A stretch of DNA of 64,000 nt from Desulfatiglandales bacterium. Its GTDB lineage: Bacteria; Desulfobacterota; DSM-4660; Desulfatiglandales; Desulfatiglandaceae. Under the pieces are notes generated by a model. It did no database searches and was not told the DNA's origin. It was given only the letters and a program-made list of their open reading frames with translations. The stretch's first letter is position 1; each line of letters opens with the position of its first letter. Position numbers and translations under genes: made by a program. Shown here piece by piece: positions 3 through 25,126 of this stretch. The stretch lies in contig OY759599.1 in NCBI GenBank assembly GCA_963662465.1, positions 1,952,001 to 2,016,000 on the forward strand. The letters run 5' to 3'.

Positions 3-362
3 GCAAAAGATGGGTTCTTTACCAGGGCCGCGGTAGAGGGTCTCCACTCAAAACGGCTCGAAGAATATTTCGCTCCGGAGAAAGAGGGTTTCAGAGTAAA
101 AGAGGTGCTAAAGCGCATGGTAAGCTTTGAGGAACACAGCCTCATCGCCGCCCCCCCCTGTACCGGGCAGAATCTTGTGCTGTGTCGGAATGTCCTCATC
201 TATTTCTCTCCCATCCTGCAGGCGCAGGTTTTGAAACACCTTCACCGGGGGCTACGCCACGGAGGTTTTTTGCTCTTAGGCAAGGCTGAGGCCCCGGGGA
301 AGGAAACAAAAGGATTGTTTCAATGTGTAAACAACAAAGCAAAACTGTATCGGAAAGCGTGA
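3..362 (+). CDS. cheR: CheR-type protein-glutamate methyltransferase, C-terminal part (5' end outside window)
   Basis: Frame is open from base 3; contains LVLCRNVLIYF and GGFLLLGKAE CheR motifs. Confidence 0.9.
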   Translation, partial: AKDGFFTRAAVEGLHSKRLEEYFAPEKEGFRVKEVLKRMVSFEEHSLIAAPPCTGQNLVLCRNVLIYFSPILQAQVLKHLHRGLRHGGFLLLGKAEAPGKETKGLFQCVNNKAKLYRKA

Positions 363-949
363 TCCGTAATCCGCAATCCGCAATCCGCAATCTGGTTGTC
401 ATTGCCGCGTCGGCCGGAGGGATTTCCCCGTTGACCCAGGTGATCTCTCAACTGCCCAAAGGGCTGGCGGCCGCGGTGATTGTGGTGCAGCACCTCTCGG
501 CGAAAAGGGAAACCACTCTTCCCGAAATGCTGAATCGTCAGTCAAAATTACAGGTATCCCTGGCCGAGGACGGGATGCCCCTTGAAGCCGGAAAAGTCTA
601 TATTGCGGAGCCGGGGAAACACCTCCTGGTGGAGGACGATTTCCTGTCCGTGGTTTTTTCCGAGCGGGTCCACTATGTGCGCCCTTCCGCGGACCTGCTC
701 TTTGTCTCCGCGGCCACATCCTTCGGTCGACGTGTGATCGGGGTTGTTCTCTCCGGGACGGGCAAGGACGGGGCCCTCGGTTGCGTCTCCATCAAGGCAA
801 AGGGAGGGGTCACCATGGCCCAGGATGAAGCAACCGCCGGTTACTATGGTATGCCGCAGAGCGCCATTGACGCCGATGCAATCGATTACGTTTTACCACC
901 AAACCGTATCGTTGACAAGATTGTGGAACTGGTCAATACTACCCGATGA
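359..949 (+). CDS. cheB: Stand-alone CheB methylesterase (no receiver domain)
   Basis: Catalytic motifs AASAGG, VQHL, RPSAD, LSGTGKDG; GTG at 359 overlaps the cheR stop (GTGA). Confidence 0.9.
   Translation: MIRNPQSAIRNLVVIAASAGGISPLTQVISQLPKGLAAAVIVVQHLSAKRETTLPEMLNRQSKLQVSLAEDGMPLEAGKVYIAEPGKHLLVEDDFLSVVFSERVHYVRPSADLLFVSAATSFGRRVIGVVLSGTGKDGALGCVSIKAKGGVTMAQDEATAGYYGMPQSAIDADAIDYVLPPNRIVDKIVELVNTTR
362..392. repeat. Tandem heptamer repeat (ATCCGCA)n at the cheB 5' end
   Basis: atccgta atccgca atccgca atccgca atc; related copies at ~982-1000 and inverted at ~2932-2940. Confidence 0.8.
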
Positions 950-1032
950 CCGTTGAACCCATAACCGATTCGTTATTTGTCAATCCGCATTCCGCAATCC
1001 AAATAAAAAAAAGGGGGAAAAGGTAAACAGCC

Positions 1033-2547
1033 ATGAAAAAAGTAAAGGTATTACGCCATTCACGGTCGGCGGGAGATCTCCGGACCCGGCCCACGACCAC
1101 CACCGACAGGTTTAAAGAAACGGTGCCGGCCAAGGTGAGCCGGAATATCCGCCAGGGGCACCTGGTGAAGGCCATGAGGGGCATCAACCACCTTGAATGG
1201 GAGCCCTGGGAACAGACGGTTACAGAGATGCAGCGGGCCATGGACCGGCAACGTCTGAACCAGAACAATCGTTTTTATAACGCCCTGGACACGGCCCATC
1301 AGATGGTACAGGAGATACGGCGAAGGGAAGAGGAACTTCAGGCCATCAACGAGGAAATGGAGGCTTCAAACGAAGAGCTTCAGGCCACCAATGAGGAGAT
1401 GGAGGCTACCAATGAAGAGTTGCAGGCGACTTCGGAAGAGCTGCGCCAGGCGGGGGCCTATGCCGGCAGCCTGATCGAGGCGAGCCTGGATACCCTGGTG
1501 ACCATCGGTTCGGATGGAAAAATCACCGATATCAATTCCGAAACGGAAAGAATCACCGGTCGCACCAGAGAAGAACTCGTGGGCACGGACTTTTCGAATT
1601 ATTTCACGGATCCCGAGAATGCAAGGACAGGGTATCTGAAAGCCTTAAAGGAGGGGGCGGTGCGAGACTATCCTCTGGAACTCCGGCACGCCGATGAGCA
1701 TGTGACGCCTGTCCTGTACAACGCCTCGGTGTATCGGGACGAGGCCGGGAAGGTCTTAGGGGTTTTCGCGGCAGCCCGGGACGTCACGGAGCAGAAAAAA
1801 ACAGAGGAAAAGCTGAAAAACCTGCTGGATCAACTCAAAGGATCCCAGGCCCAACTCATACAGGCCGGAAAAATGGGCGCCATGGGCACCATGACCGCCG
1901 GCATAGCGCACGAACTTAACAACCCCATGATGGGGATACTCAATTTTGTTCAGTATTGTCTCAAACACACCTCACCGGACGACAGGCGATACACGGTCCT
2001 TCAAGACGCTGAGAATGAAACGAAACGCTGTGCTGAGATTGTTCAGAATCTCTTAACCTTTTCCCGCATGGAGCAGGAAGGTGAGGAAGAGTATACTAAA
2101 GTGAGCTGCAAGATGATACTGGATCGCGTTCTCAAGTTACTATCCTACCGGGTCGAGAGAGAAAAGGTATTGCTCACTGAACATACGGCTGAAGAAATCC
2201 CCCCCATCTGGGTGAAAGAAAACAATATTCAACAGGTGATCTTCAATTTGATCGGCAATGCCCTGGACAGTTTAAGAACCAGCGATAAAAAAAAGATCCA
2301 TGCGGACATACGCCCTGAAGGTAAATTTGTCCAAATAACCATTGGGGATACCGGGTGTGGTATTTCCCCTGAAAACCTCCAAAAAATCTTCGATCCCTTT
2401 TTTACCACAAAACCTGTCGGGAAAGGAACGGGGCTTGGACTTTCCATATGCCACAGCATTGTCGAGTCCCACGGCGGAAATATCAAAGGAACAAAGATAA
2501 GGGTTCTATTACCCATTGAGAAAAGTGACGGGGATAAGGGAAATTAA
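1033..2547 (+). CDS. PAS histidine kinase with methyl-accepting-type EE heptad coiled coil (MAC-like)
   Basis: EEELQAINEEMEASNEELQATNEE repeats, PAS, H-box GIAHELNNP, N-box NLIGNALD, DTGCG, PFFTTK, GTGLGL; start codon uncertain. Confidence 0.88.
   Translation: MKKVKVLRHSRSAGDLRTRPTTTTDRFKETVPAKVSRNIRQGHLVKAMRGINHLEWEPWEQTVTEMQRAMDRQRLNQNNRFYNALDTAHQMVQEIRRREEELQAINEEMEASNEELQATNEEMEATNEELQATSEELRQAGAYAGSLIEASLDTLVTIGSDGKITDINSETERITGRTREELVGTDFSNYFTDPENARTGYLKALKEGAVRDYPLELRHADEHVTPVLYNASVYRDEAGKVLGVFAAARDVTEQKKTEEKLKNLLDQLKGSQAQLIQAGKMGAMGTMTAGIAHELNNPMMGILNFVQYCLKHTSPDDRRYTVLQDAENETKRCAEIVQNLLTFSRMEQEGEEEYTKVSCKMILDRVLKLLSYRVEREKVLLTEHTAEEIPPIWVKENNIQQVIFNLIGNALDSLRTSDKKKIHADIRPEGKFVQITIGDTGCGISPENLQKIFDPFFTTKPVGKGTGLGLSICHSIVESHGGNIKGTKIRVLLPIEKSDGDKGN
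1330..1443 (+). repeat. Degenerate 21-bp coding repeat (EE[L/M][Q/E]AxN heptads)
   Basis: gaggaacttcaggccatcaac / gaggaaatggaggcttcaaac / gaagagcttcaggccaccaat / gaggagatggaggctaccaat / gaagagttgcaggcgacttcg. Confidence 0.85.
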
Positions 2548-2548
2548 A

Positions 2549-2932: not shown

Positions 2933-2976
2933 ATTGCGGACTATCGCCAATCTTCAATATTATAAAGGGAAGCGCC

Positions 2977-3273
2977 ATGAAACGAATACTACTCCGTTTA
3001 TACGTTACCGGTTCAACACCACGATCCATGAAGGCCATCGCAAACCTGAAAGCTATTTGTGAAGGGGAATTGAAGGGCAAAGTCGATCTTCAGGTGATAG
3101 ATGTTTTGGAACATCCCCAATTGGCTGAAAATGAGAAGGTCATTGCAACCCCCACCCTGATCAAGGAGATTCCCCCGCCCTTAAGGCGTATCATCGGGGA
3201 CCTGTCGGACAAGGACAGGGTCCTGCTTGGGCTTGAGATTGTTGAGGCAATCGCACTCAAGAAAACAGAATGA
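2977..3273 (+). CDS. kaiB: KaiB-family protein
   Basis: LRLYVTGSTPRS...VIDVLEHPQLAE...IATPTLIKEIPPPLRRIIGDLSD matches the KaiB signature over its full length. Confidence 0.95.
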   Translation: MKRILLRLYVTGSTPRSMKAIANLKAICEGELKGKVDLQVIDVLEHPQLAENEKVIATPTLIKEIPPPLRRIIGDLSDKDRVLLGLEIVEAIALKKTE

Positions 3274-3372
3274 AAAAGATCCTTGTCGCGCCGGCGCTGA
3301 TCAAAGACCTGCCGGCGGCCTCTCAGACAGGTCATCAATCCTTTCCGCCACCCTGAATGAGCCGGAGGTTTT

Positions 3373-4866
3373 ATGAAAACAAAGGCTTTTCGCATTCTTG
3401 CCCTGGACGATGAACCGTCGATCCTCCAGTTGTACAAGCGGATACTCCCCGCGGGACAAGGCGGGAAACCGATCCCCGCCGGGGTCGCCTTTGATCTGAC
3501 CTGTTGCGCCCGCGCTGAAGAAGCCGTGGAAGTCTTTCGGGAGGCCGTGGCGGAGAACCGACCCTTTTCGGTGGTTTTTCTGGATATCCGCATGCCTGAA
3601 GGACGGGACGGGGTGTGGGCGGCCGAGGAAATCCGGAAACTGGATACTACCATGGGGATCGTCATGGTCACCGGAGATATTGACGCCGATTTTGATGATG
3701 TGGAACGTCGGGTCCCACCGCCGGACAAGCTCTTCTATTTGGCAAAGCCGTTCAATGCCAAGGAAATCCGCCGGTTTTCCCTGGCCCTCTGTGCCCGATG
3801 GGAGGCGGAAAGGGAACTGCTCCGGATCCATGACCATCTGGAAACCATGGTGGCGGAGAGAACCGCTGCCCTGACGGACGCCAACGAACATCTCAAGGCC
3901 GAAGCGGTAAACCGCCTGGCGGCGGAAAAGACCCTTCGGCTCAGCCAGGAAAACTTCCGTAACATGATTTTGGAAAACGCGGACGGCATCATCATCTTTG
4001 ACCCGGAACAGATGGTTCGGTTCGTCAACCCAGCGGCGGAAGGGATCTTCCGGAAAAAGGCGGAAAAATTCATCGGGACCTCCCTGGGGTTCCCCCTGGT
4101 GGACGGAGACAAAACGGAACTGGATATCGTCCAACCTGGAGGCACTTTGATGGTGGTGGAAATGCGGGTGACGGAAACCCGCTGGGAGGGGGAAAAGGCC
4201 TATCTCGCTTCCCTCCGGGACATCTCGGAGCACAGTCGCACCAAGGAAGACCTGAGAGAAAGCGTCGAAAGTCTTGAAAACACCATGACTCGTACGGTGG
4301 AGGCCATGGCCAGGACCGTTGAAAGAAGAGACCCCTACACGGCGGGCCATCAGTACAGGGTGGCGACACTGTCGCGGGCCATCGGCCGGGAGATGGGATT
4401 TTCCGACCAGGAGATCCTGGGCCTCTACATGGCGGCTCTGGTTCACGACATCGGCAAAATATGTATTCCCGCGGAGATCCTTTGCAGACCCGGACGCTTG
4501 AGCAAACCGGAAATGAACATGATCCAATACCATTCCCAAGACGGATACGACATTCTGAAAGACATCCCCTTTCCCTGGCCCATCGCCCGCATTGTCCTGC
4601 AGCATCATGAACGCATGGACGGCTCCGGCTACCCAAAGGGTCTTTCCGGAGATGAAATTATGATGGAGGCTCGGATCCTGGCCGTGGCGGATGTGGTGGA
4701 AGCCATGGCCTCCCACCGCCCCTACCGGGAGGCCCGGGGGCTCCCGCTCGCCCTGGAGGAAATCTCAAAGAACAGCGGAAAATTCTATGACCGGCAGGTG
4801 GTGAACACCTGCGTAAGATTGTTCGAGGAACAGCAATTCACCCTGCCCAACGGGCTGGATTCATAA
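3373..4866 (+). CDS. REC-PAS-HD-GYP phosphodiesterase (probable c-di-GMP PDE)
   Basis: ALDDE/FLDIRMP/KP receiver, PAS, RDPYTAGHQ, LVHDIGK, HHERMDGSGYP, VADVVEAM. Confidence 0.92.
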   Translation: MKTKAFRILALDDEPSILQLYKRILPAGQGGKPIPAGVAFDLTCCARAEEAVEVFREAVAENRPFSVVFLDIRMPEGRDGVWAAEEIRKLDTTMGIVMVTGDIDADFDDVERRVPPPDKLFYLAKPFNAKEIRRFSLALCARWEAERELLRIHDHLETMVAERTAALTDANEHLKAEAVNRLAAEKTLRLSQENFRNMILENADGIIIFDPEQMVRFVNPAAEGIFRKKAEKFIGTSLGFPLVDGDKTELDIVQPGGTLMVVEMRVTETRWEGEKAYLASLRDISEHSRTKEDLRESVESLENTMTRTVEAMARTVERRDPYTAGHQYRVATLSRAIGREMGFSDQEILGLYMAALVHDIGKICIPAEILCRPGRLSKPEMNMIQYHSQDGYDILKDIPFPWPIARIVLQHHERMDGSGYPKGLSGDEIMMEARILAVADVVEAMASHRPYREARGLPLALEEISKNSGKFYDRQVVNTCVRLFEEQQFTLPNGLDS

Positions 4867-4875
4867 AGAGTCTCC

Positions 4876-5555
4876 ATGACCCCGCTCCATCTTCGTCACC
4901 CGATTCATACATTAAGCGGCCGGCAGTTGCTTTCCTCGGGCGCTGCACTCACAAAAGAGACCTTAGATCAGCTCATTTTGTCAAATAAAACAATGCCCGA
5001 ACCATCCTTTTCAGTGATGGATCATGGCTCGACCAAAAGGGACCTCCTTGATTTTATTCATCAGCCGCCCTATAACGCCATATTCTCCGACCCGGAACGA
5101 ATCCGGGATTGATGACCCGCATGGCATCTGTTTGTGAGGAACGGGATATGCTTGAGCATCATGCCGCAGCCGGGTATATTCTGCTTTGTTATCACCTAAA
5201 GGACAAAAACAACCTGGTGGCCCGAGTGGCGCTGAACCATCATGAACGAAGAAACGGCGCCGGATACCCAGAAGGGATAAAGCAAACAGACCGACTGATT
5301 GAAATTGTGGCCGTCTGTGACATCTATGACGCCCTCGTTTCCCGAAGACCCTATCGGGCCGCACCTTATGACAACCGCACAGCACTGGAGGAAATTACCC
5401 TGTTGGCGGAAAAAGGTGAAATATCCTGGGAGGCACTCAACGCATTGATCTCCCATAACCGCAGAAAAAAACCCCACTACAGCCGAGTTATCGCGTTCAT
5501 GGAAAAAAGGGGGGTTCCACCACCAAAGAATGTTTATGGTGTCACGGTAGAATAA
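4876..5555 (+). pseudogene. HD-GYP protein with internal deletion and frame break
   Basis: Two overlapping ORFs (4876-5112, 5109-5555); the C-terminal part has HHERRNGAGYP and CDIYDAL but the HD-containing segment is absent. Confidence 0.75.
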
Positions 5556-5831
5556 GGTATCTATTATTTCCTCGCCTCCCGTGGCCCCCAGTCACCTCAC
5601 CAGGTGACAACTATACTGATACAGGAGGCCAAGCAATAAACTTAAAAAGCTTTATGGGAAAATAATGGGCAATGCCGACATGTATGACGAGATGCTACTG
5701 TCTGCGATTTCGCCCTGGGAGTGTTGAGGAAGGATAGGTTGCAAAACTTTAAAAGAACGTCCCGGTTCCCATGGGGGGGGTTGCCATTCAAAATGAGTTA
5801 TCGTCCAGATTGTATGGTAACGGGGAGTGGT

Positions 5832-5957
5832 ATGGCGATAAAGGGGGTGTTAAGAGAGGAATTGGATAATTCCGTCAGAATGCAGAAAAGATATGAGGAA
5901 GAACTCGAAAGGCTTCCTGTTGGCAGTCTTGTAAGAAAGAAAATCAAGGGGCATTAC
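5832..5957 (+). pseudogene. Truncated small hypothetical protein (MAIKGVLREELDNS...)
   Basis: RBS-like ggggag then ATG; protein-like sequence to KKIKGHY, then runs into C-rich heptamer-like DNA. Confidence 0.4.
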
Positions 5958-6057
5958 GTGGACAGGAGTCAAGATGACCCTTTCCATTTCTGCCCCCAGA
6001 CCCCTGACTCCTGATCCCCAACCCCCACCTTCTGTCCCCAAACGGGGAACAAATTCC

Positions 6058-6085
6058 TTGACAACCGTACCATAAACAGTACAAT
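6058..6085 (+). promoter_or_regulatory. Sigma70-type promoter with overlapping GTAC-N8-GTAC candidate operator
   Basis: TTGACA (6058-6063), 16-nt spacer, TACAAT (6080-6085); GTAC at 6067 and 6079. Confidence 0.7.
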
Positions 6086-6091
6086 CCCTCT

Positions 6092-6439
6092 GTGGATAAG
6101 AGAAAGATCATAAGCGCCCATTTTTATAAATCCTCTTCGGGAAGAATGCCAGTACGGGAATGGCTCCTGTCATTATCAAAAGAGGACAGAATCGAGATCG
6201 GCGGAGATATCGCCAATGTAGAATACCATTGGCCCGTAGGCCCGCCAAAATGTAAACCCATCGGCGATGGGATGTTCGAAATTCGCTCCAGAATTTCGAA
6301 CGACCGAATCGCCCGGGTGCTTTTCTTTACAGAATCCGATCAGTTATATCTACTTCATGGATTCATCAAGAAAACCACCAAAATCCCCAAACGGGACGTC
6401 GATCTGGCGCGGAACCGAAAGAAGGTAATGGAGGGATAA
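6092..6439 (+). CDS. Type II toxin, RelE/ParE superfamily (HigB/Gp49-like)
   Basis: FYKSSSGRMPVREWL...GMFEIRS...ARVLF...LLHGFIKKT; lies upstream of an HTH antitoxin. Confidence 0.88.
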   Translation: MDKRKIISAHFYKSSSGRMPVREWLLSLSKEDRIEIGGDIANVEYHWPVGPPKCKPIGDGMFEIRSRISNDRIARVLFFTESDQLYLLHGFIKKTTKIPKRDVDLARNRKKVMEG

Positions 6440-6441
6440 AA

Positions 6442-6735
6442 ATGATCAACAAAAAGCATATCGGACAAGGTTTTGAGGATTTTCTCCAGGAAGAAGGGAT
6501 CTACGAACAAGTCCAGTTGAATGCCTTGAAAAAGACCCTTGCGCATCAGATCAAGGCCATGATGGAGGAACGAGGCATACCCAAAACAGAGATGGCAAGT
6601 CGTATGCACACGAGCCGATCCTCTCTGGACCGTCTTCTAAATGAGAATTTCTGCAACGTGACCATCGGCACGATCAGTAAGGCAGCAACTGTTCTGGGAA
6701 AACGAATCGAACTCTCCCTCGTGGACAACGGATAA
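6442..6735 (+). CDS. XRE-family HTH antitoxin (HigA-like)
   Basis: HIGQGFEDFLQEEG N-terminus and KTEMASRMHTSRSSLDRLL HTH; starts 2 nt after the toxin stop. Confidence 0.88.
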   Translation: MINKKHIGQGFEDFLQEEGIYEQVQLNALKKTLAHQIKAMMEERGIPKTEMASRMHTSRSSLDRLLNENFCNVTIGTISKAATVLGKRIELSLVDNG

Positions 6736-7110
6736 GCATGATACGAAGGATGCGGCCAATGTAGCGGATTTGGTTTCCCAAGGCAAATATCTGTTTTACG
6801 AATATCCGATCATGCCGCTTCGCGAACTGCGAAATCTGCTGTCTTTTAAACGTCGGCTGAAAAAACAGGAACATGGGACCAGAGTACGAATTCGGAATCA
6901 TTTGCTTGCTCAGTATTTTCCTGAATTGGATACTTATTTTTCCCGGATATCAGGCTGTAGCCTTAGCGTTGTGAAATGGTGTCTGGAACCTTCTTTGATT
7001 GCAGGACTGGAGTACGAAGAGTTCCTTAGGTTGGTCGCACCCGGTAAACGTACGGTAAGACAACTGGAGTACGTGAAGCAGATTTGGGAAAAGGCATTTG
7101 AATCCATCCT
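6731..7110 (+). mobile_element. IS110-family transposase internal fragment
   Basis: Frame reads DKHDTKDAANVADLVSQGK...LRELRNLL...RIRNHLLAQYFPELD; both ends missing. Confidence 0.7.
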
Positions 7111-7119
7111 GAGAAGGCA

Positions 7120-7377
7120 TTGTCCCTGTGCGAAGAACGCACCGACCACATCCACCTGCTCATCACGGATGTGGTGATGCCGGAGATGGATGGCGGTCAG
7201 TTAACGGAACGGGTTAAGAAACGGATGCCGGGGGTCAAAGTTCTCTATATGTCGGGATATACAGAGGACGTCATCGCGCAAAAGGGTGTGCTTTATAAAG
7301 GGGTCCGGTTCCTTCAAAAACCCTTCTCCCGGGAAGCATTGCTCAGGAAGGTTCGTGAGGTATTGGATGAGAAATGA
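7120..7377 (+). pseudogene. C-terminal receiver-domain fragment, probably of a hybrid kinase
   Basis: IHLLITDVVMPEMDG...VLYMSGY...FLQKPFS; the N-terminal DD strand is missing and it abuts the IS110 fragment. Confidence 0.75.
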
Positions 7378-7413
7378 ACCGCCGTTCCGGGATAATGTAT
7401 TCGTAACCGTTCA

Positions 7414-7606
7414 CAGGGTGCAGGGTGTAGTTGTCAGGGGGCCGAATGAGATTGGAAGATTTTATATGTATGGAAAAGAGGCCCACGATTGAGTCCAATA
7501 TCCACAAACAATCAGATCAAACATGCCGATTGTCTCAATTTGATAGATGTCAAGTGCTTGAGAAAGAATTAGCGCTGATTTTTCTGCACCCTGACAACTG
7601 CACCCT
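7414..7606. repeat. Inverted-repeat-bounded element containing a decayed four-helix-bundle-like gene start
   Basis: agggtgtagttgtcaggg (7422-7439) vs ccctgacaactgcaccct (7589-7606), 17/18 complementary; ATG at 7446 reads MRLED(L)YVWKR..RLS.NIHK across frameshifts. Confidence 0.6.
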
Positions 7607-7679
7607 CTTAATCCCGGAAGACCTCTACCCGGTCCCTTTTGATGTATATTTTAGACATACATTAACCAGTGATGCAAAT

Positions 7680-10118: not shown

Positions 10119-10399
10119 GAATTTTTACCCCTCAAGTTCAGCAAATCAAATACCCTTTTGCCATCGGAAAGATCGCCGATAAGGCGCCGCATGGGTGGGG
10201 GGGTCAGCAAAATCAGGGTAGGCGTCGCCATGACGTTGGCCTCCTCAGCCGATTGGGGATCTTTGAGTACATCAATAATCTCCAGAGTCCCCTGCCCCTT
10301 CAAACGCTCGTCAAAAATCGTCGTCACCCCATCGATGGCCTTTTTGGATCTCAGCGTATCCCCAGCCACGTATAATTTCATGAATACGTTGTTTTCCAT
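10115..10399 (-). CDS. kaiB: KaiB-family protein (second paralogue)
   Basis: KLYVAGDTLRS...IIDVLKDPQSAEE...MATPTL...PPPMRRLIGDLSD. Confidence 0.93.
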   Translation of the reverse strand: MENNVFMKLYVAGDTLRSKKAIDGVTTIFDERLKGQGTLEIIDVLKDPQSAEEANVMATPTLILLTPPPMRRLIGDLSDGKRVFDLLNLRGKNS

Positions 10400-10517
10400 G
10401 AATCCTCATCTTTCATCTTTGGAAACAATCTTTTGCCTCGAAAAACAGCCCTTTCCGGAACCCCATTAAAGCATAAGGCGCATACGGTGTAAACATATCA
10501 CTTCATAAAAATATCTT

Positions 10518-12812: not shown

Positions 12813-12841
12813 AGTCCTTCCTCCCAAACGATGAGATGCTT

Positions 12842-14037: not shown

Positions 14038-14434
14038 TTTCCCGCCCCCCCTCAATCATCATGGGGCCTTCCAAAGCCCCTTTACACACCATGAGAATCG
14101 TATCCCCGTCCACCGGCTTGTTGAGCAGCTCGAATTCCGTTCCTTTTTGTGCCATAATTGACAGTTCCTCGAAAAATTCACCATAAAACGCCGTCACAAT
14201 GTATACCAGCATCTCTTGATCCAGTTTCCGGATTTCACTTAAAGTTTCCACCCCCGACATACCGGGCATTTTCAAATCCAGAAAGACCAGATCGTATGAT
14301 TCCGACGCGATCATTTCAAGGCCTTTTTTGCCGGACGAAGCCGTATCCACAAGGTAGCCGCTGTCCTCCAGCGCCAACTCAAAAGATCTGCGTATTGCAG
14401 CCTCATCGTCGATCACAATGATTCGTTTTGCCAT
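14006..14434 (-). CDS. Single-domain response regulator (paralogue of 2549-2932)
   Basis: VIDDE, FLDLKMPG, IVTAF, NKP. Confidence 0.92.
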   Translation of the reverse strand: MAKRIIVIDDEAAIRRSFELALEDSGYLVDTASSGKKGLEMIASESYDLVFLDLKMPGMSGVETLSEIRKLDQEMLVYIVTAFYGEFFEELSIMAQKGTEFELLNKPVDGDTILMVCKGALEGPMMIEGGRENEMGMEKNNF

Positions 14435-14476
14435 TATTGCCTCCACCCTCTTGAAAAACCAAATCCGACAAACTTA

Positions 14477-16309: not shown

Positions 16310-16733
16310 GGCGTTCCCCCCGCAAGGTCGCCCTGGGCTGCACGTTAACCAGCATCTTGACCTTCGCCAGGAACTCGGTCTCCCATTTGGGCGGTTCAAA
16401 ACCAAAACCCTTCGGCTTGGCCATCACATCCAGCGCACCGGCCCGCATAGCCTCAAAGGCTATATTCATTTCCTGAAAGTTGCTTTTGGCGGTTATCACA
16501 ATAATGGGGATGGGATTTTCGGCCATGATCCGTCGTGTGGCCTCCAGGCCGTCCATAACCGGCATGGTCACATCCATGGTAATCAGGTCAGGTTTTAAGC
16601 CACGGGCCATGGCAACTGCCTCCCCGCCATTTTCCGCTTCACCCACCACCTCAATTTCCGGATCAGCGTTCAGAAGTTCCTTGAGTATCATTCGAATGGT
16701 GGCAGAATCATCCACAATCAATATGCGTATCAT
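16299..16733 (-). CDS. Stand-alone CheB-type receiver domain protein
   Basis: IVDDS...VVGEAENG...TMDVTMPVMDG...IMAENPIPI, closely resembling the REC of the adjacent CheB. Confidence 0.85.
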   Translation of the reverse strand: MIRILIVDDSATIRMILKELLNADPEIEVVGEAENGGEAVAMARGLKPDLITMDVTMPVMDGLEATRRIMAENPIPIIVITAKSNFQEMNIAFEAMRAGALDVMAKPKGFGFEPPKWETEFLAKVKMLVNVQPRATLRGERHGE

Positions 16734-17767
16734 AATAGGATCAACTCCCTGATATTTCTACCAATGGCGTCAAGCGCCAGTACTTTTAACGCCGCATCCA
16801 TGGCAATGGCTTCCTTGGGCATTCCGAAAACGATGGAACTGGCCTCATCCTGAGCAATGGTATAGCCCCCTTCCTGTTTTATGGCATATAAACCGTCGGC
16901 CCCATCCCGACCCATTCCGGTCAGAAGGACGCCTAAGGCGCCGGCGCCGTAGTGTTTTGCCACTGAATTGAACAGGGCTGTTACCGATGGTCGGTGACCA
17001 TCCAGCGGATTCTGTTTAAGAAGCGCTGCCCGTCGTTCCCTTGTCACCTGAAGGTGAACATCGTCGGGGGCAACGTAAACAGTGCCCGGCAGAAGTAATT
17101 CACCGTTTTTCGCTAGTACGACGCGAATGGGGACCGTCTCGTTGAGCCATCGGGCCAGACCGGCGGTAAATCCTTTGCTGATATGCTGTACCAGCACAAC
17201 AGGCGCGGGAAATGTCGTCGGAAAATCCCCCAGAATGGTTTGAAGAGCCGGCGGCCCGCCCGTGGAGGCGCCCACGGCAACGATCCGGTATGAATGTGAA
17301 GGGCGTATGCTTGGGGAGGGCGCCTTTTTGGCGACCGGTTTTGAATTTTTCGCCGGCCATCGGCGCCGAACCACTTTCACATCGGACATGGCCTTAACCA
17401 CTTTGATGAGTTCATGAGCGCCCGGATCATCTTCAGGCAAACCGTGAGGCTTTCCAAACACCATCAATGCACCTGAGTCCACCCCCTTGTAGGTCACGCC
17501 CAAACGGATATCCGATTCGGTGCTGGTCAGTATGACGATGGGGACCGGTGATTCCGCCATAATGCGGCGAATGGCCTCATAACCATCCATTTCCGGCATA
17601 TGGATGTCCATGGTGACCACATCCGGATGAAGCCGGGCCACCATATCGATGGCCTCTTCACCGTTTTGCGCTTCCCCCACCACATGAAGCTCCGGATCCG
17701 TGCTGAAAATGGCCCGAATCAATTGTCGAATGGTTGGCGAATCATCGACAATCAGTGCTTTGATCAT
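16730..17767 (-). CDS. cheB: CheB methylesterase with receiver domain (WspF-like)
   Basis: REC plus GASTGG, VQHI, HRPSV, LTGMGRDG. Confidence 0.95.
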   Translation of the reverse strand: MIKALIVDDSPTIRQLIRAIFSTDPELHVVGEAQNGEEAIDMVARLHPDVVTMDIHMPEMDGYEAIRRIMAESPVPIVILTSTESDIRLGVTYKGVDSGALMVFGKPHGLPEDDPGAHELIKVVKAMSDVKVVRRRWPAKNSKPVAKKAPSPSIRPSHSYRIVAVGASTGGPPALQTILGDFPTTFPAPVVLVQHISKGFTAGLARWLNETVPIRVVLAKNGELLLPGTVYVAPDDVHLQVTRERRAALLKQNPLDGHRPSVTALFNSVAKHYGAGALGVLLTGMGRDGADGLYAIKQEGGYTIAQDEASSIVFGMPKEAIAMDAALKVLALDAIGRNIRELILL

Positions 17768-17777
17768 TTTTAAATCC

Positions 17778-20123
17778 CTATCCAATCAAACGCTCAATGG
17801 TTTCCAGTAACGCCTGCTGGTCAAAGGTCCCCTTGGTAATATACACATCCGCACCGACCTCCATGCCTCGAATTTTGTCCTCGGTCGATTCCAGGGAGGT
17901 GACCAGCACAATGGGCAAATCCTCAAACCGGGTGTCGTGCCGAACCTTCTCGGTCAACTGGAAACCGTCCATACGCGGCATTTCAATATCAAACACCACC
18001 GCATCGAAAGATTCGTCCTGCATCCGTTCCCACCCTTCAACGCCGTCCGCAGCCTGAGCCACATGGTATCCGGCATTTTCCAGGATATTTTTTTCAAGGG
18101 TTCTCGTGGTAATGGAATCATCCACCACCAGGATTTTCTTGGCCACAGCCGGTTTCCCTCGGATTTTCCGCATCAGGTTGACGCCCTTAAACCCCTGGGC
18201 CGAATAGATCATGCTGCCGGCATTCAGGATCATTACCACCTGCCCCGTGCCCAGGATCGTGGCCCCTGAAATATTCCGTACCCGCTGCAACTGCGGGCCC
18301 AGGTTCTTTATGACAACCTCCTGTACCCCCAGGAACTCCTCCACTTGAAATGCCAGTCTCTTTTCTACCGCCCCCAGAATCACCACCTTGATTTTCTGTC
18401 CCGCGTTTTCGGCCTTTTCAAAACCCGGCAACTCCAGAATCCGGTCCATGGGAAACAACGGCAATGCCCGGCCATCTACGTTAATGGCCGATTTTCCTTC
18501 CATACGCTTAATTTGTTCCGGCTTGAGCTGTAGAATCCGTTCAACACTCGTATTGGGAACCGCCACGGTCTGATTGGCCACCTTCAACATCAATACGTGG
18601 ATGGTGGCCAGGGTCAGGGGCAGAATCAAGGTAAAGGTGGTTCCCTTGTTCATTTCGGTGTACGTTTTAACCTGGCCGTGAAGGTTTTCAAGCTGCTCCC
18701 GCACCACATCCATCCCCACGCCCCGACCGGAGAGCTCCGTAACCGCGGCATGAGTGGATAGACCGGATTGGAAAAGCAGGTCAATGGTCTCATCGAGACC
18801 CATTTTTTCGGCATCCACCGGCGAAATCAGATTGTTTTTCACAGCCGCCCCACGAACCGCGGGCAAGTTGATGCCGGCCCCATCATCGCTCACCTCCAGA
18901 ACGATGTGGTTGCCCCGCTGAAGGGCTTTCAAATAAATGGTTCCTTCGCGGGACTTCCCTTTTTCCAGGCGTTGATCCGGCAGCTCAATGCCATGATCAA
19001 TGGCATTTCGCAACAGGTGTGTCAGCGGATCCTTCAGGCCTTCCAGAACCTGACGATCAATTTCGGTCTCAACCCCTTCCAGAATCAGTTGAACCTCTTT
19101 TCCTTTTTCACGGGCAATATTGCGGATCATTCGAGGGAAAAGATCAAAGAGGGTGGACACCGGCACCATACGCACACGGCGCACACCGTCCTGTATGTCG
19201 TCGGTCAACAATGCCAGGTGCCGGTAGTCCCCTTCCAGCAATTCGCAAAGGCGGTTTATTTTTTGACCCACATCGTTGAGATGAATTTCATTGCGCGTAA
19301 AAAACGCCGTAAGGGTTTCCAAATCCGGATCTCCTTTAACGCGGCGTTCCACATCCCTTTTTTTTGCCCGAATTTTTCGCCAGTGTTTCTCCCATCCACC
19401 CAACACGGTTTGAACGGATTTCAATTCACCCAGTCTTTGTTCCATACGCATTCGCGCACCCAGCAATTCTCCCATTCCAACCATGAGACCATCCAGTTTC
19501 TCCGTACTGACGCGAATGGTGTCGCCGCCCCTGTTGCCAAGGGAAACAGGCTTGGATTCGGCGGTTTTTCCAGCGGAAACCGTCTCTGTTTTTTTCTTCG
19601 GTTTCGCTTCCCCTTGTTCTGTGCGGAGGTTGTCATCGGTTTCGGTTCCAACGCGATCCGCTTCCCCATTTTCCAACGAAACCGCAGGTTCATGGATCTT
19701 ATTCCCGACATCCGATAATTCTCCTCGAAGCACCGAATCCATATCCGACATGACCGCTCTTCTGGCTTCGAATGGCAGAACCAGGCCATCAAGATGCAAT
19801 CGCATGGCATCATTGAGTAGATCGGTGGCGCGAAGCAGAGAATCCACCAGCTGGTAAGAGGATGTCAGCTCTCCTGTCTTAAGGGCGCCCAAAACATCCT
19901 CCATTTTGTGCGCCACCGTATGGATGTCCTTCAAATCAACGGCGCGGGCCGAGCCCTTGATACTGTGTGCCGACCGAAAAAGGGCTTTCAGCAGTTCATC
20001 CCGCTCATCCGGCGGCAGATCCTTTTCGATCTCCAGCAATCCCTTGTTCAGCGCGGCAGAATGGTCTTCCAACTCCGCCCTAAAGGTCGCCAGCAGTTGA
20101 CGCTGAAGTTCTTCGCGATCCAT
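17778..20123 (-). CDS. cheA: CheA-receiver hybrid kinase (WspE-like)
   Basis: Hpt FRSAHSIKG, HLLRNAIDHG, DDGAG, SGRGVGMDVV, CheW domain, C-terminal VVDDSITTR receiver. Confidence 0.95.
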   Translation of the reverse strand: MDREELQRQLLATFRAELEDHSAALNKGLLEIEKDLPPDERDELLKALFRSAHSIKGSARAVDLKDIHTVAHKMEDVLGALKTGELTSSYQLVDSLLRATDLLNDAMRLHLDGLVLPFEARRAVMSDMDSVLRGELSDVGNKIHEPAVSLENGEADRVGTETDDNLRTEQGEAKPKKKTETVSAGKTAESKPVSLGNRGGDTIRVSTEKLDGLMVGMGELLGARMRMEQRLGELKSVQTVLGGWEKHWRKIRAKKRDVERRVKGDPDLETLTAFFTRNEIHLNDVGQKINRLCELLEGDYRHLALLTDDIQDGVRRVRMVPVSTLFDLFPRMIRNIAREKGKEVQLILEGVETEIDRQVLEGLKDPLTHLLRNAIDHGIELPDQRLEKGKSREGTIYLKALQRGNHIVLEVSDDGAGINLPAVRGAAVKNNLISPVDAEKMGLDETIDLLFQSGLSTHAAVTELSGRGVGMDVVREQLENLHGQVKTYTEMNKGTTFTLILPLTLATIHVLMLKVANQTVAVPNTSVERILQLKPEQIKRMEGKSAINVDGRALPLFPMDRILELPGFEKAENAGQKIKVVILGAVEKRLAFQVEEFLGVQEVVIKNLGPQLQRVRNISGATILGTGQVVMILNAGSMIYSAQGFKGVNLMRKIRGKPAVAKKILVVDDSITTRTLEKNILENAGYHVAQAADGVEGWERMQDESFDAVVFDIEMPRMDGFQLTEKVRHDTRFEDLPIVLVTSLESTEDKIRGMEVGADVYITKGTFDQQALLETIERLIG

Positions 20124-20148
20124 ATCTTTCCCCAGTGCAATTGAAATC

Positions 20149-22398
20149 TCAATTCAAACGATAACGTCCCACAATCCCTTTCAGTTGTTCGGCCAAGGCA
20201 TTCAGATTTCTGACGGATTCCTCCACCTCCCGCGTCCCTTCTTCGGTCTGGGAGGTCGTCCGATTGATGTTTTGCATGGCCTCGGAAATCTGATCCATGC
20301 CGGCCAGCTGATCCTGGATGCTCACGGAGATCTGCTGAAGGGTATGGGCGCCCTTTTGCATGTCTTCATTGATGGCACAAATAACTGCCCCCGCTTTCTC
20401 GGCCTGATGCACGCCGGCGTCCGCCCGCCGGGTTCCCTCTTCAGTCACCATCACCGCCCTGTTGGCGGCTTTCTGGATATCTCCCAGAATCTCCTGCACC
20501 CTGGCGGTGGCCTGACGCGACTCATCGGCCAGGTTTCTCACTTCTCCCGCCACCACCGCAAATCCCTTTCCCGCTTCACCGGCGCGGGCCGCTTCAATGG
20601 CGGCATTCAGGGCCAACAGGTTGGACTGGTCGGCGATATCATTGACGGTCTCGATAATGTCTCCGATTTGCTGGGTTTGCTCGCTGAGCGTCAGGATGTT
20701 TTCAGCAATGCTGGACATCTGTTCTTTAATGCGGTTAACCCCTGCAACAGCCTCCTGGACTGCCGCAAAGCCCGCATCTGTTTCTTTCATGGTTTCTTTT
20801 GCCAACCGAGCCATTTTGCTGGATCGTCCGGCACTTTGCTGCGCGGTCCGGCGGGCCTGATCCATTGTGATGGAAGTTTGAGCAACGCTTGCCGCCTGTT
20901 CAGCGCTCATAGCCGCCTGTTCCTGGGTAGCGGCCAGGATCTGAGAAGTAGCCGACGTCATGTTCTGAACCCCTTCAGAAACCAGGGTTGCCAGTTCTTT
21001 CAGATTCCGCGTCATTTGGTTCAGGTAATTACCCAAAATCGCCAATTCGTCTTCATTGTTTGGCGGAATCACTTCGGCGGTCAAATCGCCCCGGCCCACA
21101 ACTTCCAAAAATTTCACGTAATCTCTCACTGTGGATTCCAGGGATTGTTTGGTTTCCCGGTCTGCCCGGGCACGGTATTCCAGTTCTTCGGTCATCTGTC
21201 TGAGATTGGCCACCATCCGGTTAAAAGACTTGGCCAGCATGCCGGCTTCGCCCTTTGCGCGAACCTCCGCAATCACATTCAGGTCCCCTGCGCTGATTTT
21301 TTCCGCCGCATCCGTCACACGTCCGATGGGCCTGGAAATCCTGGCCGCCACGAACCAGACCAGCGCCAGCGCAAGGGCCGTCAAAATCAAGCCGATAAAG
21401 ATCATGCGCCACATCATGCGCGAGGTTTCATGGGTAACCACATCCCAGGGCAGACTGATATTGACAAACCAGGGCGTTTGCGTATGGCCGATGCGCACCG
21501 GTACAAACGCCGTTATAAACCCTTCGTCCATTTCAACAACGGCTTTTCCCGATTGAACATACGCCAGGTCCGATCGCAGGTCCCGATGCGGTTTTTGCGT
21601 GAGGCCACCCAGGTCTTTATGGTTTCCTTCGGAAGCAACGATCATACCCCCATGGGTGATAAGGCTGACCACGGCTTGTCCGGGATAGGGATTGTGCTTT
21701 TCCAGATAGGTCTGTAGCGCCTTCATGCCCACATCCACGCCTGCAATGCCCCGGAAAACACCGTCCACTACGATGGGCGCTACCAGCGACGTCATCAACA
21801 CCTCCCGGCCCTGCACCGGATAGAGATAGGGCTCGATGATGCACTCTCTCTTTCGCTTTCTGGGCAACTGATAATAGTCGCCTTTACCCTCAATTTCGTA
21901 ATATTCAGGGGTCTCCACCTCGATTTCTCCGGACCCCCCCCGATTCCAGTAGGCGATAAATCGGCCCGTTTCGTCATAGGGAAAGCGGCCCTTGAATTGG
22001 TCATCTTTCCCATCAAAGGCATCGGGCTCCCAGAGGGTATAGGTTCCGACAAAATCCGGATTGCTTGCCGTCACTTTTTTGAGCATTCGGTTGATCTGAT
22101 CCCGAGATAACGCCACGCCGTTTTCAACCATCCCCGAGACGGCCTTTTCCTTTATTCCCACAGAACCAAACGCCTGCGCCAGGGTCCGCGCCGCATCCAG
22201 CGGGACCTCTATACGGGCCTGGATAAAATTTCCGATGGCCTCTCCATCAGCAAGGATGCCCTTTTTCGCCGTCTCAAGGGCAATGCTTCGCTGGGTAACG
22301 ACCGCATAGGCGAGCATCAGGCCAAACATCAATAACATGCACGCCCCCACCCACAAAAGGATTTTGACCTTGATGGTTTGGACGCTGAATCGAACCAT
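20149..22398 (-). CDS. Methyl-accepting chemotaxis protein with dCache-like sensor
   Basis: TM, periplasmic YYQLP...IIEPY..., TM, HAMP, signalling hairpin [16 protein letters not shown]. Confidence 0.93.
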
Positions 22399-22417
22399 TT
22401 CTACTTTCCTCACCTTG

Positions 22418-22981
22418 CTAAGCCGTCTCTTCCCGAACGATGATTCCCGGATCGGAAATAAGCTTTTGCATATCCAGAATCATGAGCATGTCGGCGGTCA
22501 CGCCTTTGATATACCCCTGGGCGCCGGCTGAAACAGCCCCGGTCGGAGGCTGAACATCACTCAGGGAAATTTTTTCAAGTTTCGGACGACCATCCGCCAC
22601 AATGCAGAATTCCATCAACTTTCGATCCGGTGCGGTTTCACCTACAATTAAAAGCACATGGGCCTTTTCCATGTCAATATCAACGGCAATTCCCAGATAG
22701 GCGGCAATATTCATCATGGAATAGATTCTGCCTCGAAGATTGACCGCCCCGACAATAAAATCAGGCGTACAGGGGACCAGGGACCACATCCCCCGCTTCA
22801 GGGGTTGAATCTCCTGAATGTGTTCGATGTTCAGACCGAAGCGCTCCTCGCCCAATGAAAAGCTCAGAAGCCGCGGAACGTCCTGAGCCTCTGACTCTCC
22901 AGGCCCTGTTTTGGCCAATTCACACGCCCGCTGCTTCAGGATTTTTTGTAACGCTTCATCCAGGGATGTTTCCGTCATCAT
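22418..22981 (-). CDS. cheW: CheW coupling protein
   Basis: [37 protein letters not shown]. Confidence 0.9.
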
Positions 22982-23049
22982 CTGCAAACCCTTTCTTGTA
23001 AACATTTACGATTCAGCGCTTTTTCAACCGTAAGCAGTTGCCCATTTTT

Positions 23050-24582
23050 TTACTTCAAGGTCTTCGCCATTGTCAACAGCGTCCCGGCCGTCAGCGCTTC
23101 CGCGTCTGACAGGGGCGTCTCCGGCGCCATACGGGAAAGCAGTTTTACGGCCTGGTCTCGGTGGCGATCCGATTGATCGTTCTTATCCAGCCGGCGAAAC
23201 AAAACCGCCATGGAAAAATGGGCCAATGCAAAATCGGGTTTAAGAAAAAGCGCCCGCTTGAGTTTGTCGAGCGCATCTTTCATATTGCCGCTTTCCTGAT
23301 GGATCAGCGCCAGGGTATAGTAAGCATCCGAAATCAAGGGGTTGATCTCAATGGCTTGCTCACAAAATAATTTGGCCGATTCCATCCTGCCGAGATTGGC
23401 ATGGGCCAAACCCATCTGATAAAGGCTTTCGGCATCTTTGGGGTTTTGGGCAATACACGTCAAAAATGCATCCATGGCTTCTTCATAGCGCTTCTGACGA
23501 ACCAGATGGATGCCTTTCTGAAAAAAATCCAGTGCAGGAGCCGTTTCCCCCGAAAATACGGGATTCGTTGTTTTCTGAATGAAACCGTTTTCCGTAAGCT
23601 GTGAATCCTCTTTGGCCGTTTCTTCAAAAACCGTCGGTTTCACGGGAGTGATGGGTACAGGCGTACGGCAGATGCTTTCATTTGCGGACTTTCCATGAAA
23701 CCGAAACGGCTTGGTGAAAGGTTTTCGCAACTTTTGAAAGACCGTACCACCTGAAAAAATACGGGCCGCATAGGCATCAAAAACCGGAATGCCGGTTTCA
23801 GCCGCACCCATCATAAGCCATCCACCCCATATCAAACACCTGTGAAAACGTTCGGCCACCTGTCGGATCACCGCCTCGGAATAATAGATGGCCACATTGC
23901 GGCACAGAATCAGGTCCATGGCGTTGGTATTGGTGAAAAGGGACGGATAAACCGGCTCGTTCAAATTGAGGTAGGCAAAGTGTACGTTTTCCCGAATTCG
24001 CGGAATCACTTCGTACGCTTCACCCTTTTGTCTGAAATAACGGGATTGAAAGCTCGGATCGGTTTGCCGAAAGGACCAGGGCCGATAGTGAGCTGCCCTG
24101 CCCTTTTTGAGTACCGTTTTATTGATATCCGTTGCCAGGATGGTAATGTTCCAGAGATGGATATCTAAAAGCAGCTCTGCCAGCAACATGGACAGGGTGT
24201 AGGCTTCTTCGCCGGTGGCACACGCCGCACTCCATATTCGAATTCGGCGATCATGTTGATGTTCGGCAATGATCCGGGGGAGAACATACTGCCGAAGGGC
24301 CTCAATCTGTTTTTCATCCCTGAAAAAATAAGTTTCCCCGACCGTCAGTTCCTTAACCAGTGCATCCCACAGGGGGCTGTTCGTTTCAGCGACCTGAAGC
24401 ATTTGAAAATATCGGTCCAAGTCGTTTTCAGCAGCCTCTTTACACAATAAGGTAATGCCCCGTCCCAAGGCGGATCGCCTTTTAGGCCCGAAGAGGATGC
24501 CGGTCCGTTCCAGAACCAGTGTCTTGAATCGTTCATGCTGATCGTTGTTCAGGAAATATCGGGATTTCAGCGCCGTATTCAT
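23050..24582 (-). CDS. cheR: CheR methyltransferase with C-terminal TPR repeats (WspC-like)
   Basis: TVGETYFFRD, IWSAACATGEEAY, ATDIN, LCRNVAIY, followed by TPR helices. Confidence 0.93.
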   Translation of the reverse strand: MNTALKSRYFLNNDQHERFKTLVLERTGILFGPKRRSALGRGITLLCKEAAENDLDRYFQMLQVAETNSPLWDALVKELTVGETYFFRDEKQIEALRQYVLPRIIAEHQHDRRIRIWSAACATGEEAYTLSMLLAELLLDIHLWNITILATDINKTVLKKGRAAHYRPWSFRQTDPSFQSRYFRQKGEAYEVIPRIRENVHFAYLNLNEPVYPSLFTNTNAMDLILCRNVAIYYSEAVIRQVAERFHRCLIWGGWLMMGAAETGIPVFDAYAARIFSGGTVFQKLRKPFTKPFRFHGKSANESICRTPVPITPVKPTVFEETAKEDSQLTENGFIQKTTNPVFSGETAPALDFFQKGIHLVRQKRYEEAMDAFLTCIAQNPKDAESLYQMGLAHANLGRMESAKLFCEQAIEINPLISDAYYTLALIHQESGNMKDALDKLKRALFLKPDFALAHFSMAVLFRRLDKNDQSDRHRDQAVKLLSRMAPETPLSDAEALTAGTLLTMAKTLK

Positions 24583-24589
24583 AACTTTG

Positions 24590-25126
24590 TTAATCTACCA
24601 AATGTTCTTCAAATTCAATGAGCGCCCCGGTATCGATCTGATCAACCTCCAGCACCAGATAAACAACATTGTTTTTCCGAACCACCGCGTTAAGCAACGG
24701 GGATTTCTTCAAAGCACCCTCCGGTTTTGCCAGATGACGCCGGGATACGGCCATCACTTCCTCGACGTCTTCGGCAATGACCCCCAGCCTTCGGTTCCGC
24801 GTATGCATAATCAGGATGCGATGATCCAGTTCCGCCGTTTTAAGCGGCAAACCCAATCGTTTTCTCAAGGTAATGACCGGCATTACCTTTCCCTGCAAGT
24901 TGATGAGCCCGGAAATCCAATCCGGCGCCTCAGGGACCGGAACCAGTGCCACCATGCGAATAACGCGCTCGACCTTGTCCAGGGGAAAAGCCAGTTGACG
25001 GTCGCCAATGCGAAAAGCGAGAAAATACCCCTCAATCCCCCCCGAATCAGAAGTTTTGGGTTCCTGTAACGCATGCGGTTCGCCAAGAGGCATCTCTGAC
25101 GGCTCTATGGTTGATTTATCCTGCAC
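24590..25126 (-). CDS. cheW: CheW coupling protein
   Basis: LAFPLDKVERVI, VPEAPDWISGLINLQGKVMPVI. Confidence 0.9.
   Translation of the reverse strand: MQDKSTIEPSEMPLGEPHALQEPKTSDSGGIEGYFLAFRIGDRQLAFPLDKVERVIRMVALVPVPEAPDWISGLINLQGKVMPVITLRKRLGLPLKTAELDHRILIMHTRNRRLGVIAEDVEEVMAVSRRHLAKPEGALKKSPLLNAVVRKNNVVYLVLEVDQIDTGALIEFEEHLVD

Follow-up and report, generated by a model that had tools for sequence, protein, structure and literature searches.

Two KaiB paralogues encoded beside opposing cyclic di-GMP enzymes in a Desulfatiglandales bacterium: candidate subunits of their neighbours

To our knowledge, KaiB has been studied almost only as the partner of KaiC. The stretch of DNA analysed here, 64 kb from a Desulfatiglandales bacterium (G000:C1:1,952,001-2,016,000, in a sulfate-reducer-type genome of one contig and 8.16 Mb; hereafter the window), carries two kaiB genes, each followed by an enzyme in the turnover of c-di-GMP (the cyclic dimer of guanosine monophosphate). 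KaiB-A on the plus strand precedes an HD-GYP phosphodiesterase, and KaiB-B on the minus strand precedes a GGDEF diguanylate cyclase (Table 1). Family searches of the whole genome bear out the initial annotation in that neither kaiC nor kaiA is present in the 64 kb: every KaiC-family match falls outside positions 1,952,001-2,016,000, and the profile search for KaiA finds no match anywhere in the 8.16 Mb. What, then, does KaiB do beside enzymes that make and break a second messenger? The reading that we prefer, which in our judgement stands evenly balanced between true and false, is that each KaiB is a small binding subunit of the c-di-GMP enzyme encoded next to it and not a clock part, in two paralogous modules. 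A functional link between KaiB and the c-di-GMP enzymes is supported by the comparisons of gene order and sequence that follow.

The stop codon of kaiB-B and the start codon of the cyclase share the ATGA at 10115-10118, which is read directly in the sequence and confirms the translational coupling of the minus-strand kaiB (starting at 10399) to a GGEEF cyclase that had been claimed for this locus. The conservation of this pair was followed with a clade profile made of the cyclase-linked KaiBs and searched across 201 Desulfatiglandales genomes. It scores 155-170 bits on seven loci in six genomes (G000, which is the present one, G004, G006, G007, G010 twice, and G016), against 104.5 bits for the best KaiB outside them, and three metagenome contigs (L084, L085 and L086) carry further members. 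The clade is recovered with seven of the seven genome rows at a support of 100/99, and with all ten members at a Shimodaira-Hasegawa-like approximate likelihood ratio test (SH-aLRT) value of 97; 25 of its columns are invariant. A cyclase of the same family (~780-812 residues) follows kaiB-B in all ten members, with differing flanks and in differing genera, so that the neighbourhood survey proposed at the outset found the adjacency kept throughout the clade. The two genes overlap by 4 nucleotides (nt) in seven of the ten, namely six of the seven genome loci and L085. The exceptions are L086, with a 5-nt gap, G006, where an open reading frame for a 154-residue REC protein stands between the two, and L084, in which the cyclase start could not be placed. 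Since this cyclase follows KaiB-B throughout the clade, two genomes without a KaiC match included, KaiB-B is likely a regulatory subunit of the enzyme.

The surroundings of the pair vary. A REC-HD-GYP-REC gene lies directly upstream of kaiB-B in five of the ten loci (G010 L057, G016, G006, L084 and L085); with the cyclase downstream, these five hold an opposing enzyme pair within one operon. The order in G016 is kinase, single-domain response regulator RR2, binding protein, methyl-accepting chemotaxis protein (MCP) 2, HD-GYP, KaiB-B and cyclase. In G004, the CheB, RR3, histidine kinase (HK) 2 and RR2 genes are present, and the sequence examined ends with them. The G010 locus that is syntenic with the window has no che operon and no HD-GYP gene, its RR2 stands directly before KaiB-B, and its KaiB-A is found elsewhere in the operon. 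G007 carries a bare kaiB-B/cyclase pair between the same flanks as in the window (Ap4A phosphorylase and poly-gamma-glutamate hydrolase). The che genes are thus absent from the syntenic G010 and G007 loci, and chemosensory input, initially seen as a part of the shared layout, is not a conserved one. Metagenome neighbourhoods were counted on the 80 KaiB loci among the matches listed: KaiC adjoins KaiB in 71, the cyclase does so in four, and five contigs end just past kaiB. A word-based protein search with KaiB-B returned only nine clusters at E ≤ 1e-15, and the clade is therefore rare in public data.

The second line of evidence is the likeness of the two halves of the window to each other. RR1 and RR2 are 58% identical, HK1 matches HK2 at 41% identity across 443 residues, and KaiB-A and KaiB-B are 53% identical. 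Residues 177-297 of the HD-GYP enzyme match residues 271-391 of the cyclase (its second PAS domain, PAS-B) with 41% identity over 121 residues (E=5e-27), and this one PAS type is the sole specific similarity between the two opposing enzymes. Because the response regulator, kinase, KaiB and PAS pairs are each paralogous, a repeated unit of kinase, receiver, KaiB and REC-PAS-output can be recognised, and by these identities the two modules of the window are paralogous, with opposite outputs. The single layout that the initial annotation had seen in both clusters is thereby sustained for kinase, receiver and KaiB; on the minus strand, a binding protein and an MCP separate the receiver from kaiB. 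The paralogy of the module parts, together with the kaiB-cyclase pair in all ten members of the KaiB-B clade, places the arrangement beyond chance.

On the plus strand, the Pfam domains and the HDIGK and HHERMDGSGYP motifs in the translation, with the receiver Asp kept, verify that the kaiB at 2977 is followed by an HD-GYP phosphodiesterase. The adjacency of KaiB-A to this enzyme is less general: a c-di-GMP enzyme lies directly downstream in three of the five A-type loci, and is absent from that place in G010 and G024. In G004, a 75% ortholog of the window's HD-GYP enzyme follows the A-type KaiB, in front of which a decayed RR1 remnant is fused. Metagenome contig L132 encodes a KaiB 86% identical to KaiB-A, then a cyclase from the KaiB-B-associated family, 53% identical to that of the window, then a REC-HD-GYP protein, which indicates that a KaiB of the canonical type can also head a KaiB-cyclase-HD-GYP triad.

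The translated cyclase contains RQTD-VACRY-GGEEF, i.e. GGEEF with an RxxD I-site five residues upstream. After its PAS domains and ahead of the second receiver comes a DHp domain (residues 413-467), which is kept in 11 of 11 homologues; His420, Asp66, Asp542 and the GGE.F motif are likewise invariant in all 11. The phospho-acceptor Asp is present in every receiver domain of the window proteins examined. An invariant DHp histidine between two true receivers, in a protein that has no ATPase domain, suggests that the cyclase may have an internal module for phosphotransfer (a phosphorelay step) or for phosphatase action.

Fold-switched KaiB binds KidA of Synechococcus elongatus through PAS domains (PMC9478674), and on this ground the shared PAS type would be the best candidate for a site at which KaiB-B docks on the sensor part of the cyclase. 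Such docking could tune c-di-GMP synthesis against its breakdown by the HD-GYP enzyme. Phosphorylation by the HK-RR pairs would supply the receiver domains of both c-di-GMP enzymes with input, as would that through the pair of MCP and binding protein and, in this genome, through the Wsp-like Che pathway. A like action on the HD-GYP enzyme would fall to KaiB-A, which may have kept its contact with KaiC. In genomes that have a KaiC, such as this one, its state may be read by the module as well; in those without a match, the module would do without KaiC.

Does the fold of the two KaiBs fit such a role? Residues 2-89 of KaiB-A (E=5e-29) and 5-89 of KaiB-B (E=3e-21) match solved cyanobacterial KaiB chains. 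The closest solved structures are wild-type KaiBs for KaiB-A and fold-switch-stabilised mutants for KaiB-B. In alignments of 5JWO with 2QKE, the fold-switch mutants depart from the wild type within VLIGLDL, at its Gly and its Asp, and the fold-switch-locked mutant is described as G88A;D90R (PMC9478674). KaiB-A keeps the Gly and an acidic residue at the VLxGLDL site (LLGLEI). The Gly is replaced by Leu or Ile in all ten members of the KaiB-B clade, and the Asp position is variable. Following the logic of AF-Cluster (PMC10808063), each KaiB was folded with AlphaFold2 (AF2) from a seven-sequence alignment of its own subfamily. The best PDB matches of the KaiB-B model are 5JYT (template modelling (TM) score 0.80), 5JWO, Legionella KaiB and thioredoxins, and the N-terminal domain of SasA (6X61) is also among them; ground-state KaiBs score 0.44-0.47. 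The KaiB-A model ends with a C-terminal helix followed by a strand, its top 17 matches are ground-state KaiBs with TM scores of 0.62-0.71, against a maximum of 0.48 for fold-switched forms. On these models, the predicted resting state of KaiB-B is the fold-switched, thioredoxin-like one, with which cyanobacterial KaiB engages its partners, and that of KaiB-A is the ground state. The contrast agrees with the Gly replacement in the KaiB-B clade and is taken as a lead, not a proof. A further step, which we take only tentatively and consider somewhat doubtful, is that the KaiB-B subfamily gave up both fold switching and KaiC, and became a subunit, constitutively in the thioredoxin fold, of a free-standing push-pull module for c-di-GMP made of REC-HD-GYP-REC, KaiB and REC-PAS-PAS-DHp-REC-GGDEF.

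The occurrence of KaiC across the order bears directly on this point. KaiB is patchy, being found in 10 of 41 close relatives and in 55 of the 201 Desulfatiglandales genomes. Matches to the KaiC family were called at two thresholds, E ≤ 1e-20 and E ≤ 1e-30, and 47 of the 55 KaiB carriers have KaiC. No KaiC was found at E ≤ 1e-30 in the other eight (G007, G016, G024, G048, G084, G090, G170 and G185), all of which are draft assemblies; G007 (95% complete, 810 contigs), G016 (93%, 460) and G024 (96%, 400) are without a match at either threshold. G007 and G016, two of the six KaiB-B genomes, carry KaiB-B and its cyclase, and G024 carries CheR-CheB-HK1-RR1-KaiB. A 2017 survey had stated that bacterial KaiB occurs only alongside full-length KaiC (PMC5520375), and these eight carriers, drafts as they are, run against that rule.

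Several observations weigh against the subunit reading. The genome has two KaiC of its own. The second KaiB-B/cyclase pair of G010, a congener, lies inside a kaiBC operon (binding protein, MCP, REC-HD-GYP-REC, KaiB-B, cyclase, REC-X, KaiB and KaiC, all co-directional), and downstream of kaiBC in G006 come a kinase and a cyclase of the same family. From these three facts, dependence of the window's KaiBs on KaiC is possible. The carriers without a KaiC match are fragmented drafts, which leaves the absence of KaiC from them unproven. KaiB-A has no c-di-GMP enzyme after it in G010 and G024. The REC-HD-GYP-REC enzymes of the triads do not have the shared PAS, so that the notion of one KaiB acting on both enzymes through PAS fails there. 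The mean pLDDT scores (local distance difference test, as predicted) of the AF2 models are low, 69.6 for KaiB-B and 62.4 for KaiB-A, with 47-66 in the C-terminal halves, and AF2 is known to lean on memorised KaiB structures (PMC11934219).

The alternative that draws most on these observations, possible but in our view unlikely, is that the KaiB paralogues are input or output arms of the genome's remote KaiBC clock or hourglass, in which they would bind phosphorylated KaiC like other KaiBs, and that the KaiC-KaiB complex then recruits or releases the cyclase or phosphodiesterase and c-di-GMP follows the state of KaiC. The two KaiC are double-domain proteins at ~4.604 and ~4.624 Mb, each with a KaiB, and two KaiBs come after the first KaiC. 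The kaiBC1 locus (L017, G000:C1:4,615,000-4,634,000) encodes an RR2-like protein (70% identity), a binding protein (55%), an MCP2-like receptor (72%), REC-HD-GYP-REC, REC-X (a 368-residue REC protein whose C-terminal half has no assigned domain), KaiB and KaiC. Because of the shared gene order and the identities of 55-72%, this array is regarded as a paralogue of the window's array of RR2, binding protein, MCP2, KaiB-B and cyclase. KaiB-A is 68% identical to a KaiC-linked KaiB of its own genome, and KidA binds KaiB within a clock. Neither KaiB of the window, on the other hand, is encoded with a full-length KaiC, the nearest kaiC being ~2.6 Mb away; no KaiC was found in two of the six KaiB-B genomes, nor in G024; and KaiB-B forms a long separate branch with changed C-terminal residues. 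The initial annotation had offered both answers, KaiB in a push-pull c-di-GMP circuit and KaiB as the coupling to a remote KaiC, and each is partly backed, the former by the two KaiB-B genomes without a KaiC match and the latter by the G010 operon and the two KaiC of this genome.

We think it improbable that KaiB instead gates a phosphorelay, binding an RR1/RR2-type receiver or the receiver and DHp domains as a partner-switch before the RECs of the c-di-GMP enzymes. A receiver of this type does accompany all three kinds of KaiB: RR1 stands before KaiB-A in G000 and in G024 (where the ortholog is 79% identical) and survives as the degenerate fused remnant in G004, the gene directly before KaiB-B in G010 is RR2, and the kaiBC1 array begins with an RR2-like gene. 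The invariant DHp histidine of the cyclase, placed without an ATPase between two true receivers, would also suit a relay. KaiB binds receiver-fold domains of CikA and KaiA, in CikA on the alpha1-beta2-alpha2 face of the pseudo-receiver (PMC12632262). The receivers here, unlike the pseudo-receivers known to bind KaiB, keep all of their phospho-acceptor residues, and the kaiB-B/cyclase pair of G007 stands alone with no receiver or kinase gene adjoining. That the adjacency is meaningless, the kaiB copies being duplicates adrift among abundant signalling genes, is very improbable: two-component and c-di-GMP genes do abound in the genome, a truncated remnant is among its seven KaiB matches, and the clusters are separated by gene fragments and a toxin-antitoxin pair, but the downstream cyclase is kept in ten of ten clade members across differing flanks and genera (seven with the 4-nt overlap), the clade has 25 invariant columns, and both KaiBs are intact and conserved, at 85% and 77% identity to their G010 orthologs.

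Among known systems, the one closest to the subunit reading is KidA, a protein of PAS x4-GGDEF-EAL architecture that acts on the single clock KaiB within the KaiABC oscillator; its adjacency to kaiB is not stated in the accessible part of the report (PMC9478674). The likeness consists in KaiB being tied to a multi-PAS c-di-GMP enzyme, and both enzymes beside kaiB in the window have N-terminal PAS. By contrast, it is a dedicated KaiB paralogue that is involved here, its gene translationally coupled to that of a REC-PAS-PAS-DHp-REC-GGDEF cyclase and often accompanied by a separate one for an HD-GYP enzyme. In the cyclase, two PAS domains stand before GGDEF, with two receivers, a DHp and no EAL, and in the phosphodiesterase one PAS stands before HD-GYP; the enzymes are likened to KidA by domain order. 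The host is moreover a non-phototrophic member of Desulfatiglandales without KaiA, and two carriers are without a detected KaiC. The KaiBs of Rhodobacter and Legionella kaiBC loci belong to the same family with high similarity; those adjoin KaiC, and the two of the window do not. In crystals, Legionella KaiB has the fold-switched form (PMC10808063).

SasA and CikA share a logic with the present arrangement, a KaiB-like thioredoxin-fold module (SasA) or a KaiB-binding receiver-fold domain (CikA) being coupled to a DHp signalling protein. Here, KaiB is a separate protein, the DHp is without an ATPase, and the output is c-di-GMP rather than RpaA phosphorylation. The Wsp system of Pseudomonas comprises an MCP, two CheW, a CheR with TPR repeats, a CheA-REC hybrid, CheB and a receiver-GGDEF cyclase. 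The minus strand of the window has the same set of parts (MCP, two CheW, CheR, CheA-REC and CheB), all co-directional from 25126 to 7680, with the receiver-GGDEF cyclase as the last gene, and the Wsp-like operon ending in a cyclase was correctly described. It differs from Wsp in that six genes (RR3, HK2, RR2, binding protein, MCP2 and KaiB-B) stand between CheB and the cyclase, in the two receivers, two PAS domains and DHp of the latter, and in the lack of che genes at the syntenic loci named above.

A search of open-access papers and bioRxiv returned no description of KaiB arranged with a diguanylate cyclase, an HD-GYP enzyme or c-di-GMP, of KaiB in Desulfobacterota, or of a KaiC-independent or orphan KaiB. 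The earlier view that this is no characterised system holds for the arrangement within that literature, and needs to be amended in that KidA already links KaiB to a c-di-GMP enzyme. What is new is a KaiB clade fixed beside a cyclase, often with an HD-GYP enzyme, in an anaerobic Desulfatiglandales host without KaiA, with two carriers in which no KaiC was found and with the fold-switch Gly lost. The single known link between KaiB and a c-di-GMP enzyme is thereby extended from the cyanobacterial clock to anaerobic Desulfatiglandales, and the cyclase-tied clade offers a testable case of KaiB working on another target. The two KaiBs, of one genome, 53% identical, predicted to adopt opposite folds and differing at the glycine used for the laboratory lock, also form a natural pair for fold-switch work. 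Should the KaiC-free reading of KaiB-B be true, no KaiB before it would have been found to act apart from a KaiC clock or hourglass, and it would be a natural snapshot of clock parts recruited to, or arising from, second-messenger signalling.

Table 1. Genes of the two KaiB modules, with positions in the window (CheR to phosphodiesterase, plus strand; CheW to cyclase, minus strand, in order of transcription)
Feature	Position	Strand	Evidence
CheR methyltransferase, 3' part (gene start upstream of the window)	3-362	+	PF01739 E=9e-23
CheB-type methylesterase without receiver domain	323-949	+	PF01339 E=1.8e-60
HK1, coiled coil with NEEL repeats, then PAS-HisKA-HATPase	1033-2547	+	Pfam
RR1, single-domain response regulator	2516-2932 (likely start 2549)	+	PF00072 E=3e-21
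KaiB-A, canonical-type KaiB	2977-3273	+	PF07689 98 bits (cut-off 27)
REC-PAS-HD-GYP phosphodiesterase	3373-4866	+	HD_5 E=5e-40, plus REC and PAS (Pfam)
CheW, first gene of the array	24590-25126	-	Pfam
CheR with C-terminal TPR repeats	23050-24582	-	Pfam
CheW	22418-23005	-	Pfam
MCP1, PDC sensor-HAMP-MCP	20149-22413	-	Pfam
CheA-REC hybrid kinase (Hpt, dimerisation, HATPase, CheW, REC)	17778-20123	-	Pfam
CheB, REC plus methylesterase	16730-17785	-	Pfam
RR3, single-domain response regulator	16299-16733	-	PF00072 E=1.7e-25
HK2, REC-PAS-HisKA-HATPase kinase	14477-16405	-	Pfam
RR2, single-domain response regulator	14006-14446	-	Pfam
Periplasmic binding protein (Peripla_BP_6)	12952-14055	-	E=1.4e-49
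MCP2, dCache-HAMP-MCP receptor	10518-12860	-	Pfam
KaiB-B, cyclase-linked KaiB clade	10115-10399	-	PF07689 78.5 bits (cut-off 27)
REC-PAS-PAS-DHp(HisKA, no ATPase)-REC-GGDEF diguanylate cyclase, 812 residues	7680-10118	-	Pfam

The minus-strand array comprises 13 co-directional genes with intergenic gaps of at most 118 nt. The kaiBC loci of both G000 and G010 contain paralogues of its periplasmic binding protein, G016 has an ortholog, and orthologs of MCP2 (70-72% identity) lie upstream of KaiB-B in G004 and G016. The plus-strand module extends beyond the window, where the full-length CheR is found (L020:11554-12363), preceded by a dCache-PAS-HK-REC-REC kinase. The receiver-less CheB also adjoins HK1 in G010 and G024. 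HK1 carries N-terminal coiled-coil repeats, EEELQAINEEMEASNEELQATNEEMEATNEELQATSEEL, at residues ~98-137. In fused kinases, Glu-rich NEEL repeats of this kind come after the CheB/CheR domains, and they are similar to the methylation sites of MCPs; on this ground, HK1 itself may be a substrate of the adjoining CheR and CheB.

Between the convergent clusters lie part of a second HD-GYP gene at 5109-5555, which matches only profile positions 73-159, a Gp49-like/HTH toxin-antitoxin pair at 6092-6735 and a receiver fragment at 7120-7377. The pieces within 4866-7680 have the look of debris from a broken HD-GYP/REC gene, with a toxin-antitoxin module inserted among them.

The search of longer proteins gave no KaiB-cyclase or KaiB-REC fusion, which is weak evidence of their absence, and the long KaiB-containing frames of G072 and G084, which adjoin KaiC or a kinase, are artefacts of the reading frame. 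Four genome loci outside the order, at 38-46% identity, were considered as relatives and are ordinary KaiBs, two beside KaiC and two beside kinases. Two metatranscriptome runs contain only contigs of relatives, with 90-95% likeness and none bridging kaiB-B and the cyclase, and two runs of one sample cover the stretch at shares of 0.98 and 0.97 with the library type unrecorded; neither set has a bearing on transcription.

The genome holds seven KaiB-family matches. The seventh (G000:C1:3,111,273-3,111,506; L019:9150-9700, minus strand) comprises ~70 KaiB residues ending at a TGA, after which the C-terminal part of an RR1-like receiver follows in another frame. Selenocysteine at this in-frame TGA was considered and rejected, since reading TGA as U and translating all six frames show a truncated remnant; its relatives in G004 belong to another KaiB type and are intact, their TGA lying upstream of the domain. 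We also note another orphan KaiB type of 133 residues with an N-terminal extension (G000:C1:3,058,000-3,077,000, L018), which sits far from KaiC between an HTH-REC regulator and a PAS-GAF-HK-REC kinase, and which is kept in G010 (L058). A BREX BrxL gene lies near the genome's kaiBC operon.

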